A stretch of DNA of 64,000 bases from a virus (taxonomy: Duplodnaviria; Caudoviricetes): the IMG/VR virus record IMGVR_UViG_3300049742_000009, positions 1,927 to 65,926 of that record; one strand, 5' to 3'. Shown here one piece after another: positions 4,924 through 47,912 of the stretch (within the stretch, counting starts at the first letter, position 1; the number at the start of each line of letters is the position of its first letter). The notes beneath the pieces are model-generated. The model saw only the letters and a list, made by a program, of their open reading frames with translations. It searched no databases and was not told where the DNA came from. Position numbers and translations under genes: made by a program.

Positions 4924-5117
4924 CCGAGGGTGGACCCGCCAGCATCCACAGACTCAACCTTGGCGTTGGGGTATTCCTTCGCGAAGGCGTTCAGTGCTGC
5001 CGCGTTGGCTTCCCCGCGTGTCTTCTGGCCGGAGGTGACACACTGCCAGAGCTTGCCCCCGTCGTAACGTACGTCTGTCTGCCAGATGTTCATCTTGACT
5101 CTTCCTATGACTCTCAT
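4920..5117 (-). CDS. hypothetical protein
   Basis: 65 aa; ATGA overlaps at both ends. Confidence 0.55.
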   Translation of the reverse strand: MRVIGRVKMNIWQTDVRYDGGKLWQCVTSGQKTRGEANAAALNAFAKEYPNAKVESVDAGGSTLG

Positions 5118-5989
5118 GCCTTGTTTCCTTGGAGCCGATACGCTGATCGGATCGTATCCCGAGTTTCTATCTCTGTCAACCCTGCCGTACGCGCCGCTTC
5201 GCCGAGAACTTCCATTGCCTCTTCCTGCGTGGCACCGTCAGAACACATCGAACGGGCAGCCCAGAGGAGGCAGTTGTTGCGGTTGCCCTCCTGGGCGTAG
5301 GCGACTGATTCTGCGAGTCCGCCATAGTTTACGGAGCCTCCCTTCTCGTATGGAGAGGCAGCCGGTTGCGATGGTCGCGCCCTTTCCTTGCACAGTTCCA
5401 CCAGCCAGTCAGGGGCGTCCAGTACGTCAACTCCCTTGGAGCGTCGCACATATGGCCCCTTGGTGGTTTCGCTTCCCTCGCCGAGCACATAACCGCCTCG
5501 TTCGCCGCCGTTGCAGCGGATGTCCAATACGCCTTTGACGATTGAAGCTTGAGACGCTTGAAGCCAGCTCGGCCACCGGAAGTAGTAGTGAAGTCCACCG
5601 GAGCCAGTGGAAACGCAATATGTGCTCTCCACCTCTGCCCAGTCTCCCCCGTATCGGTGACACACTTCATTGAATACGGACTCGCCGTCAACCAACGGAC
5701 CGAACGCCTCGTGCATGTAGGCGAGTTTGGTTTTGGATAGGGCGTACTGCGTCTTAGGTATGTCGCAATCCACAACCAGCAGTCCAGAGGGCTTACATGC
5801 AACTCCGACGTTGGCTTCCGGCCACTGATTCCACAGACGCAACACCACGTTGAGATCGTTCGTTGCAACGTCGCTCCACTTGATCGTATACGGCGGTGTG
5901 GTGGTGTGCGGTGTCTTGCCGAAGTCCTCGACGGGGAAGATGTGGAAGCCCTTTTGAACTGCCTTCACCGCGTCAGGTAGTAGCTTCAC
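5114..5989 (-). CDS. bifunctional DNA primase/polymerase (Prim-Pol)
   Basis: GFHIFPV...GKTP, W..WPEANVGVAC..SGLLVVDCD, TGSGGLHYYF, LDIR..GGYV; C-terminal EGNRNNCL helical domain. Confidence 0.9.
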   Translation of the reverse strand: MKLLPDAVKAVQKGFHIFPVEDFGKTPHTTTPPYTIKWSDVATNDLNVVLRLWNQWPEANVGVACKPSGLLVVDCDIPKTQYALSKTKLAYMHEAFGPLVDGESVFNEVCHRYGGDWAEVESTYCVSTGSGGLHYYFRWPSWLQASQASIVKGVLDIRCNGGERGGYVLGEGSETTKGPYVRRSKGVDVLDAPDWLVELCKERARPSQPAASPYEKGGSVNYGGLAESVAYAQEGNRNNCLLWAARSMCSDGATQEEAMEVLGEAARTAGLTEIETRDTIRSAYRLQGNKA

Positions 5990-6662: not shown

Positions 6663-7715
6663 TCAATGCCCCTTCACGTAAACCAAGTTGGACTTCTTGA
6701 GTCGGAGTGGAACTAGAATCAGCTCAGTCACTATGGCCTTGAAGTCGTAGTAGGCGTTGAACGCCTTAAGGATATAGAAGGATGGCCAGCAGCGAAGCAC
6801 TCGCCACACACTTAGCTTACGTTTACGGATCGCATAAGCCAAGCTAGGGCCGAAGAGAAGTACCTCACTAGAAGCCATCCATGCGGCCACTACTAGCGGG
6901 GAGCCACCGTCCGCCATCCACCACACGGGCAGTGCCACCATGAGCGGTGAAAGTAGTATCTCTACAAGGGAGATGGCCACCCATAGCGCGAGCATGGGCT
7001 TACGTCGGACCATGTTCCAGCCATGCTGTCGGACGTTCTGGAAGTAGCCGGTCTTCCAGCGGTTGAGCTGGGCGCACATGAAGTGGCGTGAGGTCGGCTC
7101 GGCGGCGTAAGCCACCGCGTCGGCGACGTACGCCGCGCCGTGTCCGGCTATCTGCTGAGACCAGGTGTAGTCGATGTCCTCGACCAGTGTACGGTCGGGG
7201 AACCCCCCGAACTCGCGCAGCGCGTCGAGCCGGAAGGCAGAGCAGCAGCCAGAGCATACCAGCGGCGCCCCGTAGTGGTCCTGGACGGGCCGGAACCAGT
7301 GGAAGCCAGAAAGGTACTCCATCTGCCGCGCCCGCTCCCACAGCGTGTCCTGAAACCGCGTGAGCACGCAACCGGCCGCGATGACCGTGCGGGGATCTGA
7401 GAACGGCCCCTTGATCAACTCCACGTAGTCAGGCGCCAGAACGGTGTCTGCATCGACCGGAAGTACCAGGTCCGTTGAGCAGTGGTCTAGCGCGAAGTTC
7501 TGCGCCTTGGCTTTGCTGCCCAGGTTGACCCCGGGACTGAGTACGGTCACACGCTCAAAGCCTCGGGCCACGTTCGCCGTGCCGTCTGTGGAGCCGTCGT
7601 CAACGACGATGATGGCTTCGGGTGGGGTGCTCTGCGTGACCAGGGCAGCTAGCGTTTCGCCTATCCCCTCAACTTCGTTGTAAGCGGGGATGATTACCGT
7701 AAGACTAGCTGTCAC
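6663..7715 (-). CDS. processive membrane glycosyltransferase family 2 (IcaA/PgaC/cellulose-synthase-like)
   Basis: IPAYNE, VVDDGSTD, VDAD, QMEY, LVEDID and QLNRW (QxxRW), followed by about three TM helices. Confidence 0.9.
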   Translation of the reverse strand: MTASLTVIIPAYNEVEGIGETLAALVTQSTPPEAIIVVDDGSTDGTANVARGFERVTVLSPGVNLGSKAKAQNFALDHCSTDLVLPVDADTVLAPDYVELIKGPFSDPRTVIAAGCVLTRFQDTLWERARQMEYLSGFHWFRPVQDHYGAPLVCSGCCSAFRLDALREFGGFPDRTLVEDIDYTWSQQIAGHGAAYVADAVAYAAEPTSRHFMCAQLNRWKTGYFQNVRQHGWNMVRRKPMLALWVAISLVEILLSPLMVALPVWWMADGGSPLVVAAWMASSEVLLFGPSLAYAIRKRKLSVWRVLRCWPSFYILKAFNAYYDFKAIVTELILVPLRLKKSNLVYVKGH

Positions 7716-20630: not shown

Positions 20631-21650
20631 TTACCGGCGGGCGAGCTTGCGGATGCGGGTAACGATCTCTTCATCCGCCTTCTCAACCTGGCCGGTGACG
20701 GTACGGATCATGTTCCGCTCTACGCGGTTACCGCCCTTGATCGGACCCTCATGGTGCCCGTACGTGTTGAACGCCTGCCAGGCACCAAAGGCGGTGCCTC
20801 GCCACGTCACGACACGTTCGTCCGACGCCCACAGGTCATGCAGCTTGTCACGCTTGCGCATGGCCATCGTTTCGCCCCGGCTGCTCTTAGCATCCGGATC
20901 GTACGGCGTCATGTCCTCGACCAGCTTCGCGAACTTCTGGTCAGTAAAGTCCAGTTCACACAGTTCCTTGACTTCCTGTGCGAAGTCGTCGGCGATGCTG
21001 TGAACGATGCCCAGCGCGGCGCGAGCGTCCATCAGACGGCCCATGCTGTGACGGGTGGACTTGACCTTGAACTCCTGTCCCTGCTCTCGCAGACCGGCAT
21101 TCATGGTGTTGTCACAGACGACGGCTGTAGCGACGCGCTTGTATGTGGTCGCCAGCGTTCCATCGAACGAGGATACGGCCAACAGGTTGGGTCGGAACTC
21201 GACACCCTCAGGGGTGGTGATGGTGTCGGGCACCTCCACGCTCACCCAAGCCTGACGACCACCCTTGAGCAGTCCCGCCGACCCAATGGACAAGTCATCG
21301 TCCAGGATGCTGGCAACGTTCTTGAGCAGCCATTCTCCGTACTGATGAGGGACGTACCCGTCACCGAAGATGCCTAGCACATCGCCCGTGTCAGACCGCG
21401 TGATGGCCTTGAAACCGGGCACCTCACCATAGACAGTGCGACCAACGCAGACTTCCTGCGGCTTGTTCGCCACGTACAGCGGGTGTTCCTCGGCCGTCCA
21501 GTTGAACAGGCGCCGCTTCACGTCCTCCATGGGGACGGCCCCGGCATAGTGATTGTTGGCACCCTCGCGGTAGTGCCATGCGTGGCCGCGCTTGTCAGTG
21601 AAGCCAATGAGGGTGTTGTTGTTCAGCCATTCGAGCGTTTCGCGCGACAT
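20631..21650 (-). CDS. DUF932 / phage-plasmid TIGR03299-like protein
   Basis: MSRET..W...IG...RG.AWH; G...Y.P.Q; SAG.L.GGR; VVCDNT; RGTAFGAWQA.N. Confidence 0.85.
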   Translation of the reverse strand: MSRETLEWLNNNTLIGFTDKRGHAWHYREGANNHYAGAVPMEDVKRRLFNWTAEEHPLYVANKPQEVCVGRTVYGEVPGFKAITRSDTGDVLGIFGDGYVPHQYGEWLLKNVASILDDDLSIGSAGLLKGGRQAWVSVEVPDTITTPEGVEFRPNLLAVSSFDGTLATTYKRVATAVVCDNTMNAGLREQGQEFKVKSTRHSMGRLMDARAALGIVHSIADDFAQEVKELCELDFTDQKFAKLVEDMTPYDPDAKSSRGETMAMRKRDKLHDLWASDERVVTWRGTAFGAWQAFNTYGHHEGPIKGGNRVERNMIRTVTGQVEKADEEIVTRIRKLARR

Positions 21651-24761: not shown

Positions 24762-24965
24762 TCATGCGGCGTGCTTATCGTCCGAAGCCTTGTTTGGAAC
24801 GACGTAGGTCACGCCGAGCGCGCCCAGCACCGCGAGGACGACGGAAACCGCGTCCCCCGTGTTGAAGCCACCGTCAGCGATCGCCACGCCGAGCGCAGTG
24901 CCACCAGCCGCAAGACCGGCCGCCACTGCCTTGGCGTACACAGAGACCTTACCGAGTACGTTCAT
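24762..24965 (-). CDS. holin
   Basis: 67 aa, 2 TM; YAKAVAA...LGALGVTYVVPN pattern, directly after the endolysin. Confidence 0.75.
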   Translation of the reverse strand: MNVLGKVSVYAKAVAAGLAAGGTALGVAIADGGFNTGDAVSVVLAVLGALGVTYVVPNKASDDKHAA

Positions 24966-25010: not shown

Positions 25011-26039
25011 TCAGGGGGCCGGGATGAGAAGCCCGGTCTTGCTTGCGAGAAGGTTCAGCACGTCGAAGTTGGGCGTACCCGTACCCGCCCAGCCCTGGAG
25101 CTGCTGGAACTTCTTACATGCGGCCGTAGTTGCCGGACCGTAGATCCCGGGGCCGCTGCTGTAGTCGAGCCCGACGACGCGGGCTAGCGCCTTCTGGAAC
25201 GCCAGCACGTCGGATCGATGCGCGCCCGGGTGAGCCTTCGCGTACTGGAGATTGAACAGGGACACGTACGGCGGCGGCGGGACCGGTGTGGGCGTCGGAG
25301 CGGGCGCGGGCGCCGGGGCTGGCTCGTCCGGCGCCTGGTCGGTCGCCGCAGGAACGTTGATCACCTGGCCGACATCGATCTCGTCAGGGTTGGTGATCTG
25401 AGGGTTCACGGCCAGCAGCGCGTCAAGGGACACGCCCAGGCTGCGCGCAATGGCAGACAGGGTGTCGCCCGCCTTGACGGTGTACGTGTCCGTACCGGCC
25501 GCAGGCGGCGTCGGCGTGGTGTCCGGCGGGGGCGGCGCGGATGCGGTACTGTACTTCGGCCGACCGTAGCCTACGATGTAGTTCGAGTGCCGAACCATGC
25601 GCTTGCATACGTTGTCGATGTTGCCTTCGATGGTGTGCACGTCGGAACCTGATACGCTCTCAACTATACCCACGTGGTCGATAGCTGAGATGGAATTGGT
25701 ACCGTTCCAGTCGAAGAACACGATGTCTCCGCGCTGGATTCCGGCGGTGTCCGTGTGCCACTGGCCACGGCTCTGGAACCACTGTGCGTGATTCACGGTG
25801 TAGTCACGCTTCGTACCACCACACACGTTCTGCGAGTTACCGGAGTGCCAAGCCGCGTATGTGATGGTCATGTTGCACCACGGCTCACCATCCTCGCCGT
25901 ACCAGTGCGTGATGAAGTTGACGTTGTTGCCGTTCGTCTCGTCCGCGCCGATACAATAGATCATCCATGCGATCATGGAGTCCACCGATCCGTTAGCCGG
26001 AACGGACGGCTTAGGAAGCGGCTCAACTGTGCTGCTCAT
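25011..26039 (-). CDS. endolysin (CHAP + LysM + peptidoglycan-binding domain)
   Basis: PWCNM...GDIVFFDW...HVGIVE...TIEGN; YTVKAGDTLSAIA...NPQI; QKAL...GIYGPAT..A.KKFQ. Confidence 0.9.
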   Translation of the reverse strand: MSSTVEPLPKPSVPANGSVDSMIAWMIYCIGADETNGNNVNFITHWYGEDGEPWCNMTITYAAWHSGNSQNVCGGTKRDYTVNHAQWFQSRGQWHTDTAGIQRGDIVFFDWNGTNSISAIDHVGIVESVSGSDVHTIEGNIDNVCKRMVRHSNYIVGYGRPKYSTASAPPPPDTTPTPPAAGTDTYTVKAGDTLSAIARSLGVSLDALLAVNPQITNPDEIDVGQVINVPAATDQAPDEPAPAPAPAPTPTPVPPPPYVSLFNLQYAKAHPGAHRSDVLAFQKALARVVGLDYSSGPGIYGPATTAACKKFQQLQGWAGTGTPNFDVLNLLASKTGLLIPAP

Positions 26040-26283
26040 AAGGCGAGCTACCTTTCGTCCAAGTGCGGGGAGGCTCTATAGATGCGCCTCGGATTATGGC
26101 CCTATACGCCTGATCACGAGTAACCGGAAGGTCGCTGTTGACGCCACCCCTGTCTATGTAATAGACAGGTTCGCCGATATAGGCTGTGTGAATCCATCCA
26201 CACAACACCTCACAGTCGCAGGGAACTATCTTAGTCTCCCTGACAACTCTTACAGTAAAGGGCGATTCCTGATACTCAGTCAC
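26023..26283 (-). CDS. hypothetical protein
   Basis: 86 aa between the NlpC/P60 gene and the endolysin; overlaps both. Confidence 0.55.
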   Translation of the reverse strand: MTEYQESPFTVRVVRETKIVPCDCEVLCGWIHTAYIGEPVYYIDRGGVNSDLPVTRDQAYRAIIRGASIEPPRTWTKGSSPYEQHS

Positions 26284-26969
26284 AACACTCTCCGAGCGAA
26301 GTTGGGTCGGTAGTAACTCATGGACACCTGCACAACTCCCGAGCTGGGGTTCTGTGCTGCGATGTACTGCCCGTTGCCTACGTAGATAGCAACGTGGTAA
26401 GCCGCGCCGGGCAGACCCCAGAAGAGCAGGTCGCCAACTTCCAAGTGGGACAGGCTCACAGACCTACCCTGTAGCGACTGCATCTCAGATGTACGATGCA
26501 GGGTTATGCCGATCTTGGCATATGCCGCCTTGGTCAGGCCCGAACAGTCGTATGCGGAAGGTCCGTTACCGCCCCATGAGTAGCGCTTCCCAAGCTGGGC
26601 GCGCAGGAAGGCCACCAGAACCGATGTCGGCTTAGTGGGCTTGGGTGCGGGGTGGACCTTCTTAACCTCAGCCTTGGGCTTAGGCTTTGACTTGTGCTCC
26701 TCGACCTTCTTAGGTGGCTTCGGCGGCGAATCGTGCTGCGTGTTACCAGGCACGGCCGCCATCGGCCAGGTAGGGAACTCGTGTCCCTCGAAGATGGGAG
26801 CGGGAGCTATGAACTCATCCTCGTCGTCGTCGTGTTCGCGAGGCTCACCGACAGAGCCCCCGGTCGTGAAGGGTATCCACGCACCGGCTGTCACAACAGA
26901 GACAGTCAGCGCTAGGGCCTTTCTCCACGACCGGAGGCCAGCAACGGCCGCGCCGTGCTTACCTGTCAT
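26280..26969 (-). CDS. secreted or membrane-anchored NlpC/P60 peptidoglycan endopeptidase
   Basis: N-terminal basic plus hydrophobic leader, K/P linker, QLGKRYSWGGNGPSAYDCSGL...GDLLFW...HVAIY. Confidence 0.9.
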   Translation of the reverse strand: MTGKHGAAVAGLRSWRKALALTVSVVTAGAWIPFTTGGSVGEPREHDDDEDEFIAPAPIFEGHEFPTWPMAAVPGNTQHDSPPKPPKKVEEHKSKPKPKAEVKKVHPAPKPTKPTSVLVAFLRAQLGKRYSWGGNGPSAYDCSGLTKAAYAKIGITLHRTSEMQSLQGRSVSLSHLEVGDLLFWGLPGAAYHVAIYVGNGQYIAAQNPSSGVVQVSMSYYRPNFARRVL

Positions 26970-27502
26970 GCCGCAGGATCTCCAAGCTGTGCGAGTGCGG
27001 ACTTGAGCTTGTTCACAGCCTCGGCGTGCGTCGCAGTCAAGGCGTCCACCTTACTCTGCAACTCGCTTCGCTTGACCTCAAGTTCGCCGACGATCTCGTT
27101 CCGCTTGGTGTTCCCGTCTGCGATCACCTGCGCCGCCTTGGAGTTGGCGTCCGCGATGATCTGGTCACCAGCCGCGTGAGCATTGGCGATCACCTTGTCA
27201 GCAGCGGCCTTTGCCTCGGCGGCCTGCTGATCTGCGGCCTGCTGAGCAACGGCCAGGAGACGCGCAACGTCGCCAATCGGGTTGCTAGGCGCAGGCGGTG
27301 CAGCGGGAACCGGAGGGAGCTGCGCTGTCACGGCACCGCTCCGGTAGCGCGACAGATCGCCGTTAGCGGCTGCGAGCTGCGTAAGAGCGCTGCTGTAGTC
27401 AGCGACGATCCGGTCTAGGAAGTCGTCAACCTCGTGCGGATCGTAGCCCCGTAGCGACTTGACCGTAAATGTCTTCTTAGTGATGTCGTCAGGGGTCAGC
27501 AT
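26966..27502 (-). CDS. divIVA: DivIVA/Wag31-like protein
   Basis: MLTPDDITKKTF...LRGYDPHEVDDFLD signature, Pro linker, then LL..AQQ.AD...A coiled coil. Confidence 0.9.
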   Translation of the reverse strand: MLTPDDITKKTFTVKSLRGYDPHEVDDFLDRIVADYSSALTQLAAANGDLSRYRSGAVTAQLPPVPAAPPAPSNPIGDVARLLAVAQQAADQQAAEAKAAADKVIANAHAAGDQIIADANSKAAQVIADGNTKRNEIVGELEVKRSELQSKVDALTATHAEAVNKLKSALAQLGDPAA

Positions 27503-27514
27503 GAGTCACCTCGT

Positions 27515-28501
27515 TTAGTACGGGCTTCCGGGGACTATCCCGAAGTACCCGTGCGCCTCATCATTCTGGATATAGTTCAGTGCCGCAGCGACGTTCGCCA
27601 ACGGGTCGTAAATGTTCAACGATGTTCCGGCAACGTGATAGTAGTCGAACGTTGCCTTGATCGTCTGCATTAGGCCCCGACTGGGATCGCCATTCGCTGC
27701 GTTAGAGTCATCCAAGTTTATTGCGTTCGGATCGCCGGAAGACTCTGCCTGTATTAGGGCGAGTATCTGGTCTATCTGCGGCCCTCCAGAGAGTGGCACC
27801 AACTGCTCAGCCTGCTGGATGATGGGTATCCAGAACGATACGTCAGAATGCTGACAATATCCAGATACCGTCCCTGGGCAATCCGGCGCGATGGCCGGTG
27901 TGATCAGGCTGCCATCGCTGGGCGGCGTGACGACCGGCGGGGGATTGTCCACGGGCGGCGTCACGACCGGCGGAGCGGGCGGCCACGGCCCCTCACACGC
28001 CTTCCCGTCGCCGTCCATGTCCAGGGCGTGCCGGTAGCCCGGCTGGCCCCTGTGCAGCCCGGCAGGCGCGTCCGTGCAGTCTCGATACCAGACCCTGACG
28101 TGGTGTCCGTGGCCGCCATCGTGACGGCCGACCGGCGGGACCGGTACGGTGCCAGCGGGGGTGCAGTGGCCATCCGGCAGGTGGACGTGTCCGCCTCGGA
28201 AGATGAGGCTGTAGTCGTCCGGCCGGTCGCCCGCGATGATGCCAGGGTTGATGGCCTCAAGGTCTGCCAGCGCCACGCCGTAACGCGCCGCGATGGTCGA
28301 GAGGTTATCGCCACGGTTGACGATGTAGTCCTCACACGCGGTAGGAGTAGCAGGAGTCGTTACATCGCCACCAGCGGGCGCAGTAGTAGGGGCAGCGTTC
28401 GCCGGGCCAGCGAACACAATCGGAATAGAACCGGTGGTGCCAACTGCCAGTGCGGCAGCGGCAATCCTCTTCTTGTTCGGACTCGGCTTTGCGTGCTTCA
28501 T
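27515..28501 (-). CDS. secreted lytic transglycosylase (signal peptide, LysM, excalibur, SLT)
   Basis: Leader ending PANA/AP; YIVNRGDNLSTIA; YRDCTDA...GQPGY...LDMDGDGKACE; AESSGDPNAIN...GLMQTI..TF. Confidence 0.88.
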   Translation of the reverse strand: MKHAKPSPNKKRIAAAALAVGTTGSIPIVFAGPANAAPTTAPAGGDVTTPATPTACEDYIVNRGDNLSTIAARYGVALADLEAINPGIIAGDRPDDYSLIFRGGHVHLPDGHCTPAGTVPVPPVGRHDGGHGHHVRVWYRDCTDAPAGLHRGQPGYRHALDMDGDGKACEGPWPPAPPVVTPPVDNPPPVVTPPSDGSLITPAIAPDCPGTVSGYCQHSDVSFWIPIIQQAEQLVPLSGGPQIDQILALIQAESSGDPNAINLDDSNAANGDPSRGLMQTIKATFDYYHVAGTSLNIYDPLANVAAALNYIQNDEAHGYFGIVPGSPY

Positions 28502-28517
28502 CCTTGATCATCTCCAC

Positions 28518-28754
28518 TCAGTGGGTATCTGCCCATACAGCTACTACTGCCACTACGAGCGACAATATCGCTATAATCGTTGCTACTTGCTGCATCGGGA
28601 AGCGTCGCTCCTCCGAAGCACGCAAGCGCTGTTCATGATCCTTGTCGTGCTCTTCCAGGTCCTCAACTCGCGAGTGCAGTTCTATGTTTGACTCGCTAAG
28701 GCGCCTGATCTCGGACCAAATAGCCTTCTCTCGACCGCCGTTGTCTATGGGCAT
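28518..28754 (-). CDS. coiled-coil membrane protein (lysis-associated)
   Basis: Heptad N-terminus and C-terminal TM VATIIAILSLVVAVVAVW. Confidence 0.7.
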   Translation of the reverse strand: MPIDNGGREKAIWSEIRRLSESNIELHSRVEDLEEHDKDHEQRLRASEERRFPMQQVATIIAILSLVVAVVAVWADTH

Positions 28755-47804: not shown

Positions 47805-47838
47805 GAGGACTCCTCAGCTAGTATTTGTTCAACTTTCG

Positions 47839-47912
47839 TGGCGGGGGTGGGATTTGAACCCACGACCTTCGGGCTATGAACCCGCTGCGCTACCGAACTG
47901 CGCTACCCCGCT
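47839..47912 (-). tRNA. tRNA-fMet (CAT), CCA not encoded
   Basis: Cloverleaf; 1:72 mismatch, GGG/CCC in the anticodon stem, T-loop TTCAAAT. Confidence 0.92.

Follow-up and report, generated by a model that had tools for sequence, protein, structure and literature searches.

A phage-encoded minimal DivIVA with a constant place among phage lysis genes

The window, the whole stretch of 64,000 nucleotides of viral DNA analysed here, encodes a true homologue of DivIVA. Actinobacteria, among them antibiotic producers and relatives of major pathogens, depend on DivIVA as the essential organiser of their polar growth. The phage copy appears to be a cytoplasmic, minimal DivIVA. As the gene holds the same cassette place in at least 13 related phage loci, its product is probably a helper of cell bursting. 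Given this constant place in the late lysis block and the precedents of an engineered minimal DivIVA (DivIVAmin) and of DivIVA overexpression, the best reading is that the phage DivIVA serves as a spatial helper of lysis in polar-growing actinobacteria, a proposal we make tentatively and rate at a little under an even chance. The occurrence of this known scaffold family in a conserved viral lysis-block setting is new, and the lysis-helper role was found in no paper. Our literature search for phage-borne DivIVA returned no such homologue, only phage proteins that target host Wag31.

The source record, IMG/VR virus record IMGVR_UViG_3300049742_000009, is 65,926 bases long and 100% complete according to CheckV, in agreement with an earlier sequence-only reading of the gene as phage-encoded. 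Among the long ORFs on the minus strand of the window, packaging and head genes are followed by a 2138-aa tape measure, by minor tail proteins and then by the lysis block. There a membrane coiled-coil protein, an exported SLT hydrolase, DivIVA, an NlpC/P60 enzyme, an 86-aa ORF, the endolysin and the holin follow one another, all on the minus strand:

28518 to 28754, minus strand: membrane protein of 78 aa (phrog_5225), coiled-coil in its N-terminal part and with a single membrane helix at the C-terminal end
27515 to 28501, minus strand: exported wall hydrolase of 328 aa, with a cleavable-looking signal peptide (MKHAKP...ANA/A), LysM, Excalibur and an SLT lytic transglycosylase domain
27506 to 27512, minus strand: Shine-Dalgarno sequence GAGGTGA, 3 nt 5' of the DivIVA ATG and inside the 12-nt gap between the two genes
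26966 to 27502, minus strand: DivIVA of 178 aa, without a membrane segment, assigned by Pfam, NCBIfam, structural model and alignments
26280 to 26969, minus strand: NlpC/P60 endopeptidase of 229 aa, with a signal-anchor-like N-terminal segment
26023 to 26283, minus strand: 86-aa ORF with low third-position GC (0.53) and no family match, absent from the closest relative (L003)
25011 to 26039, minus strand: endolysin of 342 aa, with CHAP, LysM and PG_binding_1 domains and without an export signal
24762 to 24965, minus strand: putative holin of 67 aa, with two membrane helices
24718 to 24755, no strand assigned: strong hairpin with a 16-bp stem, separating the end of the late minus-strand operon from convergent plus-strand genes

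The DivIVA gene has a strong ribosome-binding site and lies 12 nt from the upstream hydrolase gene, and its stop overlaps the start of the NlpC/P60 gene by 4 bp. No terminator-like site was found from the tail genes to the hairpin 3' of the holin, and no promoter-like site was found for the DivIVA gene itself. DivIVA appears to be a constant part of the lysis block and to be translated from the late transcript. The window's cassette holds no LysB-type gene.

The ORF product, which starts with MLTPDDITKKTFTVKSLRGYDPHEVDDFLD, scores above the cut-offs of both Pfam DivIVA PF05103 (E 6e-15, 55.8 bits; cut-off 28) and the NCBIfam DivIVA domain TIGR03544 (59.9 bits; cut-off 22). Together with the superposition of its fold, described below, these matches confirm the full N-terminal DivIVA signature that had been noted from the letters. 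Against a profile of the phage family, the PDB sequences of DivIVA (2WUJ, E 4e-12), GpsB (4UG1, 1e-11) and Wag31 (6LFA, 2e-11) all match. A Wag31/DivIVA orthologue would score at least 260 bits over the whole protein and be encoded by a chromosomal gene after ftsZ-sepF-ylmG. The phage protein reaches 52.1 bits on the Wag31/DivIVA equivalog NF050102 (cut-off 260), and its gene sits in a lysis cassette. Nor is it assigned to GpsB, as its 43.2 bits on the GpsB equivalog NF010725 (cut-off 91) come from the N-terminal residues 2-46 only.

An AlphaFold model of the monomer, built with 67 relatives as input (pLDDT 87.6), has a helix at residues 4-9, a loop at 10-21, a helix at 22-54, a Pro-rich linker at 55-74 and one long helix of 98 residues at 75-172. 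The protein can accordingly be divided into an N-terminal lipid-binding domain (1-54), the linker (55-74) and a second coiled coil (75-172). Residues 1-55 of the model superpose on GpsB 6GP7 at 1.3-1.4 A and on DivIVA 2WUK at 1.7-1.9 A, where TM is 0.79-0.81 of the target. The resemblance to GpsB is one of the N-terminal fold (rmsd 1.3-1.5 A) and of three groove residues discussed below; unlike GpsB, the phage protein lacks the GpsB C-terminal domain and has the 98-residue DivIVA-type helix instead. The hydrophobic and basic pair L17-R18, at the predicted tip of the membrane loop, aligns with F17-R18 of Bacillus subtilis DivIVA (2WUJ), and position 17 is L, V, I or F in 91% of 63 phage-clade members; the predicted membrane-binding loop thus seems to be retained. 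In an alignment to Streptomyces DivIVA, the second coil is kept through the DivIVA-like self-association end, LxxKVxxL...LKSxLxQL. The phage DivIVA keeps the N-terminal domain, a short first coil, and a second coil with its self-association end, the parts by which DivIVA binds membrane and assembles with itself.

Comparison with cellular proteins indicates which parts are missing. The window protein aligns end to end with the native Microbacterium DivIVA (197 aa) at 37% identity. Its alignment with Streptomyces DivIVA (378 aa) falls into two blocks, residues 2-50 at 50% identity in the N-terminal domain and residues 80-170 at 37% in the second coil, the latter corresponding to Streptomyces residues 185-275. 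The sequence-only reading had described a shortened coiled coil; instead, the second coil is complete, and it is the linker joining the two coils that is short, about 30 aa in the phage protein against about 135 in Streptomyces DivIVA. The phage-clade profile gives its top score on Streptomyces DivIVA, 146-160 bits in two pieces (about 75 for the N-terminal piece and 81-86 for the second coil), and Streptomyces residues ~80-176 and 279-378 have no phage counterpart in the profile alignment. Compared with Streptomyces-type DivIVA, the phage copy lacks the long stretch between the coils and also the C-terminal tail with its phosphorylation sites. In Streptomyces DivIVA the C-terminal region carries such sites, and the parts absent from the phage copy probably bind partners (PMC12585849). 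The earlier statement that the long host C-terminal region is lacking holds against Streptomyces-type DivIVA (370-450 aa) but not against Microbacterium DivIVA, next to which the phage protein is nearly full length.

The likeness to Streptomyces and Kitasatospora DivIVA extends to the same type of membrane loop, FT(T/V)xRLR(E)GYD in the family consensus, and to a second coil that starts alike (ARxLxxAQQxADQ) and ends alike; unlike these proteins, the phage DivIVA is phage-encoded and lies in a lysis cassette. The DivIVA/Wag31 proteins of Microbacteriaceae, such as those of Microbacterium and Agromyces (231 aa), are of similar length, collinear over their full length and 37-39% identical; unlike them, the phage copy falls below the Wag31 equivalog cut-off.

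The phage DivIVA was likely acquired in one old capture from an actinomycete and then evolved inside phages. A phylogeny, which the sequence-only reading had suggested as a check on host capture, points to a single old event. A tree of 70 rows puts all 12 phage copies whose context was checked, and 19 further short proteins, into one clade (SH-aLRT 98), whose sister group is Streptomyces and Microbacteriaceae DivIVA plus a few others (support 89); both values were obtained by quick searches, and the alignments behind them are short and rich in coiled coil. Two larger trees concur at lower support with long branches set aside. Since the phage copies form a single clade that is sister to the Streptomyces and Microbacteriaceae proteins, the capture is likely old rather than recent. 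Among 401 sampled Actinomycetota, the closest cellular protein is 39% identical, and a pattern search of 185k species genomes gave at best ~31-34% identity over long stretches. The phage clade appears to have diverged by itself, without tracking its hosts. The genomes G005 (= L016), G007, G024, G054, G232 and G245 enter only as single rows in the trees or in the tally of 401 Actinomycetota, and none of the conclusions depends on them.

Where the surroundings of the best-scoring cellular copies were read, these copies are chromosomal and not phage; one of them, L110 (genome G053), lies in a cell-division gene cluster, and the same dnaE gene occurs near a Microbacterium copy (L108). A copy from an Egibacteraceae MAG (L025) grouped with the phage copies in the first tree and was dropped for its long branch and its cellular metal-ATPase context, and L100, which behaved as the same kind of long branch in the second tree, was set aside. 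The phage-type DivIVA was not found in 301 genomes of the genus Streptomyces, which held host DivIVA only. It was likewise not found in five Streptomyces genomes with prophage portals 50-60% identical to that of the window, which held only host DivIVA and coiled-coil paralogues.

Sequence searches recovered 17 close relatives of the phage DivIVA (53-99% identity) and, beyond them, many proteins of 150-200 aa that are 30-46% identical along their full length. Pattern scans of IMG/VR added only three further viral contigs; such scans underestimate the family. Gene neighbourhoods were read at 13 other loci across the family tree (L003, L006, L008-L012, L093, L094 and L112-L115). In the window and at all 13 of these, with identity falling to ~35%, DivIVA is placed after the tail genes in the late lysis block and adjoins an exported hydrolase of the Rpf type or the SLT transglycosylase type, often with added M23, NlpC/P60 or LysM domains. 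Downstream of DivIVA, each of the 13 other loci encodes an endolysin that has no signal peptide and is of the CHAP, GH25 or Amidase_2 type, along with a small holin-like protein, and a divergent repressor region usually comes after the cassette; homologues of the window's putative holin close the cassette in L008, L093 and L094. The 78-aa membrane protein is present at several related loci and absent from L006 and L011. DivIVA commonly overlaps the next gene by 4-8 bp at the related loci, and it stays constant across the 13 while gene order shifts and enzyme domains are swapped. At the start of their signal peptides the exported hydrolases have the conserved sequence (K/R)H(A/S)KP in common, although their mature domains differ. 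The GC content of the loci is 60-67%; one of them, L093 (IMG genome 2862561106), is a provirus, and integrases are visible at two.

By its position in the window and at all 13 other loci, and by its co-orientation and coupling, the gene has the features of a lysis-cassette component, and its constant place amid lysis genes fits a role linked to wall breakage. A comparable place is held by Gp1 of mycobacteriophage Ms6, an endolysin export chaperone that, as the phage DivIVA, is a small cytoplasmic accessory protein just upstream of the lysin gene in an actinophage cassette. Ms6 Gp1 has no known sequence relation to the phage DivIVA and is not known as a membrane scaffold.

We infer a localisation for the phage DivIVA, a contact with host DivIVA or the polarisome, and an effect on lysis along the following lines. 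Late in infection the protein, by itself or in mixture with host DivIVA, would assemble inside the cell on membrane that is curved and growing, which may be at poles, tips, septa or new foci. The sequence-only reading had likewise suggested co-polymerisation with host DivIVA, or recruitment of lysis proteins to curved membrane; of that reading, the homology, the retained loop and coil and the fit with a wall-breakage role are supported here. There it would disturb or redirect wall growth, and the exported phage hydrolases and the holin-released endolysin would then breach the wall at the sites so marked. Consistent with that proposal, DivIVAmin (~186 aa), which has the two-part design of the phage protein, supports growth of Kitasatospora, but the hyphae are wide and often burst at their tips (Lubbers et al. 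2025, PMC12585849), and on DivIVA overexpression wall growth was started at many new sites (PMC12585849). Against it, DivIVAmin was studied as the sole DivIVA in a deletion strain and not alongside the wild-type protein (PMC12585849). Unlike DivIVAmin, the phage DivIVA is natural, has a Pro-rich linker of ~20 residues and would be expressed beside host DivIVA; as its full-length identity to cellular DivIVA is only 30-39%, mixed coiled coils with the host protein are uncertain. That hundreds of isolated actinophages lyse their hosts without a phage DivIVA also counts against a spatial helper. In a stronger version, which we regard as doubtful, DivIVA and the exported Rpf/SLT and NlpC/P60 enzymes would work together as one unit to create weak, tip-like spots in the wall: the scaffold would seed or take over polarisome-type foci inside the cell, the hydrolases would open the wall opposite, and holin and endolysin would burst the cell there.

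The main rival is that the phage DivIVA is an adaptor that promotes or localises the export of the neighbouring signal-peptide hydrolases, via their N-termini or the host Sec machinery. We consider this unlikely. It would account for the direct adjacency of DivIVA to an exported hydrolase in the window and at all 13 other loci, often with overlapping genes, and for the signal-peptide start that those enzymes share. It also has published precedents: in Listeria the autolysins p60 and MurA are reported to need DivIVA for their SecA2-dependent secretion (PMC3478244, PMC13471167), DivIVA of Streptococcus suis binds the transglycosylase MltG and directs its localisation (PMC10269899), and GpsB binds the cytoplasmic tails of wall enzymes via Y25, D31 and D35 (PMC6335420). 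The Listeria monocytogenes protein is a host protein without phage or lysis context whose tie to exported NlpC/P60-type and LysM-type hydrolases is functional, whereas the phage tie is one of gene neighbourhood only. Residues Y20, D26 and D30 of the phage DivIVA match the GpsB groove triad and are 98-100% conserved in the phage clade; however, the same triad is common in the sampled cellular DivIVA domains and, being general to them, does not discriminate in favour of an adaptor. A GpsB-type SRxxR(R/K) motif was considered in the NlpC/P60 tail and rejected as evidence, as the window's LRSWRK is not kept in relatives (LCSWRK, RCPWRK). Most of the hydrolase signal peptides are cleavable-looking and would therefore leave no lasting cytoplasmic tail to be bound, and free-standing Rpf-like genes occur in isolated phages without any DivIVA.

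Three other readings carry less weight. The phage DivIVA might poison or sequester host DivIVA or its partners apart from lysis, leading to a stop of growth or division or to phage exclusion, with its place in the cassette incidental. The protein is indeed a homologue of an essential host protein without the regulatory parts, but genes for takeover and exclusion are usually early or lysogen-expressed. Coupling to late lysis genes, the want of a promoter-like site of its own, and a position that stays constant over deep divergence while the neighbours shuffle make such a takeover quite improbable. Host DivIVA/Wag31 is a known phage target, as mycobacteriophage Fruitloop gp52 is reported to inactivate Wag31 (Ko and Hatfull 2018). 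The two proteins, gp52 and the phage DivIVA, are alike as phage products that bear on the actinobacterial DivIVA system; gp52 is a small, unrelated Wag31 binder expressed from the prophage for exclusion, whereas the phage DivIVA is a homologue encoded in the late lysis block. It is very unlikely that the protein regulates lysis timing, as a scaffold on the membrane by which either the holin or the small coiled-coil membrane protein would be held or organised in the manner of an antiholin or a holin raft organiser. The phage DivIVA is a peripheral-membrane protein by homology and shares an operon with the holin and, at many loci, with the small coiled-coil membrane protein. However, holin types vary among the loci (r1t type, 'MNVLAKVS' type and others), and as the small membrane protein is missing from two of them, there is no constant phage membrane partner. 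That the gene is a passenger without function for the phage is hardly credible, as the frame is intact, with no stops or frameshifts, in ~60 family members with identities down to ~30%, conservation of the N-terminal domain is strong and the gene keeps its position.

A trimmed DivIVA that has long been kept, always amid wall-cutting genes, suggests that these phages use the host polarity system to influence where or how the cell breaks. If the phage DivIVA does help lysis in this way, the holin-endolysin picture would gain a spatial component. It would also supply a natural set of ~60 diverged minimal DivIVAs showing which residues matter, and a small protein tool with which to perturb polar growth. 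Should the protein and the hydrolases further prove to act as one unit, lysis would here be spatially programmed by a system specific to actinobacteria with polar growth. Where filamentous or polar-growing hosts burst, and why, becomes a directly testable question.

Among isolated phages, actinophages included, no gene for a phage DivIVA was found by tblastn with two diverged family members against a collection of 50,697 records, and neither PHROG (for the family) nor PADLOC (for the window protein) gave a match. The single phage record with a gene annotated as 'DivIVA' is that of Enterococcus phage VEsP-2, and the gene was rejected as a precedent as it adjoins a piece that the depositors mark as transduced bacterial DNA. 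In the nearest isolates, Rhodococcus equi phages such as Shagrat, the tail genes are followed by an endolysin, a holin and a membrane protein, without DivIVA. The carrier of the phage DivIVA is itself an uncultured actinobacterial phage. Its host is plausibly a tip-growing actinomycete, polar or tip growth being taken from the phylum. The portal and minor tail proteins of the window are nearest to those of Rhodococcus equi phages (54-59% identity), the portal is also 60% identical to that of a Streptomyces prophage, and the CHAP domain of the endolysin is nearest to Streptomyces phage endolysins.

The exported hydrolases encoded beside phage DivIVA share one type of signal peptide, as seen in alignment A3, which joins the window with eight other phage loci that carry DivIVA among lysis genes (L003, L006, L008-L012 and L094). 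In the window it lies as follows.

28367-28501, minus strand: signal peptide of the exported hydrolase (alignment A3)

Across this alignment the start of the signal peptide, (G)(K/R)H(A/S)KP, is conserved, as is a proline within the hydrophobic core; the mature parts of the same hydrolases vary, being of the SLT or the Rpf type and in some cases also bearing M23 or NlpC/P60. The same start is also found in actinobacterial RpfA-type proteins. A free-standing gene for an Rpf-like transglycosylase is present in the nearest isolated relatives, Rhodococcus phage Shagrat, REQ1, Madraxi and Jflix2, where it is distant from the phage's own lysis cassette and its annotation varies between lysin, minor tail protein and glycosyltransferase.

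Two small reading frames lie in the window's lysis block.

28518-28754, minus strand: 78-aa protein, phrog_5225 (a PHROG with no function assigned)
26023-26283, minus strand: 86-aa ORF between the NlpC/P60 and endolysin genes, overlapping both

The 78-aa protein is laid out as a cytoplasmic coiled coil with a single C-terminal membrane helix, and tblastn found no match to it among isolated phages. In L003, L012 and L094, relatives with a DHExRLR motif sit before the exported hydrolase; in other loci its place is taken by a coil protein whose helix is N-terminal. The 86-aa ORF has a third-position GC of 0.53 as against 0.70-0.80, is without any family match and is missing from L003, the closest relative. 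The ORF could have been inserted recently, or else be no real gene.

Directly 3' of DivIVA, six related loci encode a small acidic protein of 53-97 aa, which is not present in the window.

L093, 6488-6649: small acidic protein
L012, 7536-7703: small acidic protein
L011, 7560-7724: small acidic protein
L094, 6531-6806: small acidic protein
L113, 2639-2830: small acidic protein
L115, 4366-4659: small acidic protein

Its C-terminal end reads EELLxE(M/A)FGEPDxxG(V/I/T)YG, and the three copies searched against Pfam only (L093, L094 and L115) gave no family match.

Among isolates, the annotation 'cell division initiation protein DivIVA' is given to a gene in the record of Enterococcus phage VEsP-2 (878-1579). 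This gene adjoins a stretch that the depositors label a bacterial gene acquired by transduction; it probably belongs to host DNA and not to the phage.

Prophage portals with 50-60% identity to that of the window are held by 8 of the 301 genomes sampled from the Streptomyces genus, including G525, G583 and G686 (loci L123-L125). Most of these portal matches contain one in-frame stop, and in G583 the portal occurs in two identical copies, 41 kb apart.

Elsewhere in the window, the following genes were recorded.

5114-5989, minus strand: Prim-Pol primase/polymerase, early arm
6663-7715, minus strand: family-2 glycosyltransferase of 350 aa, early arm
20631-21650, minus strand: DUF932 protein, early arm
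47838-47912, minus strand: single tRNA-Met (CAT) gene, among structural genes

The DUF932 gene recurs in related loci together with a DUF7455 gene, their relative position unchanged.
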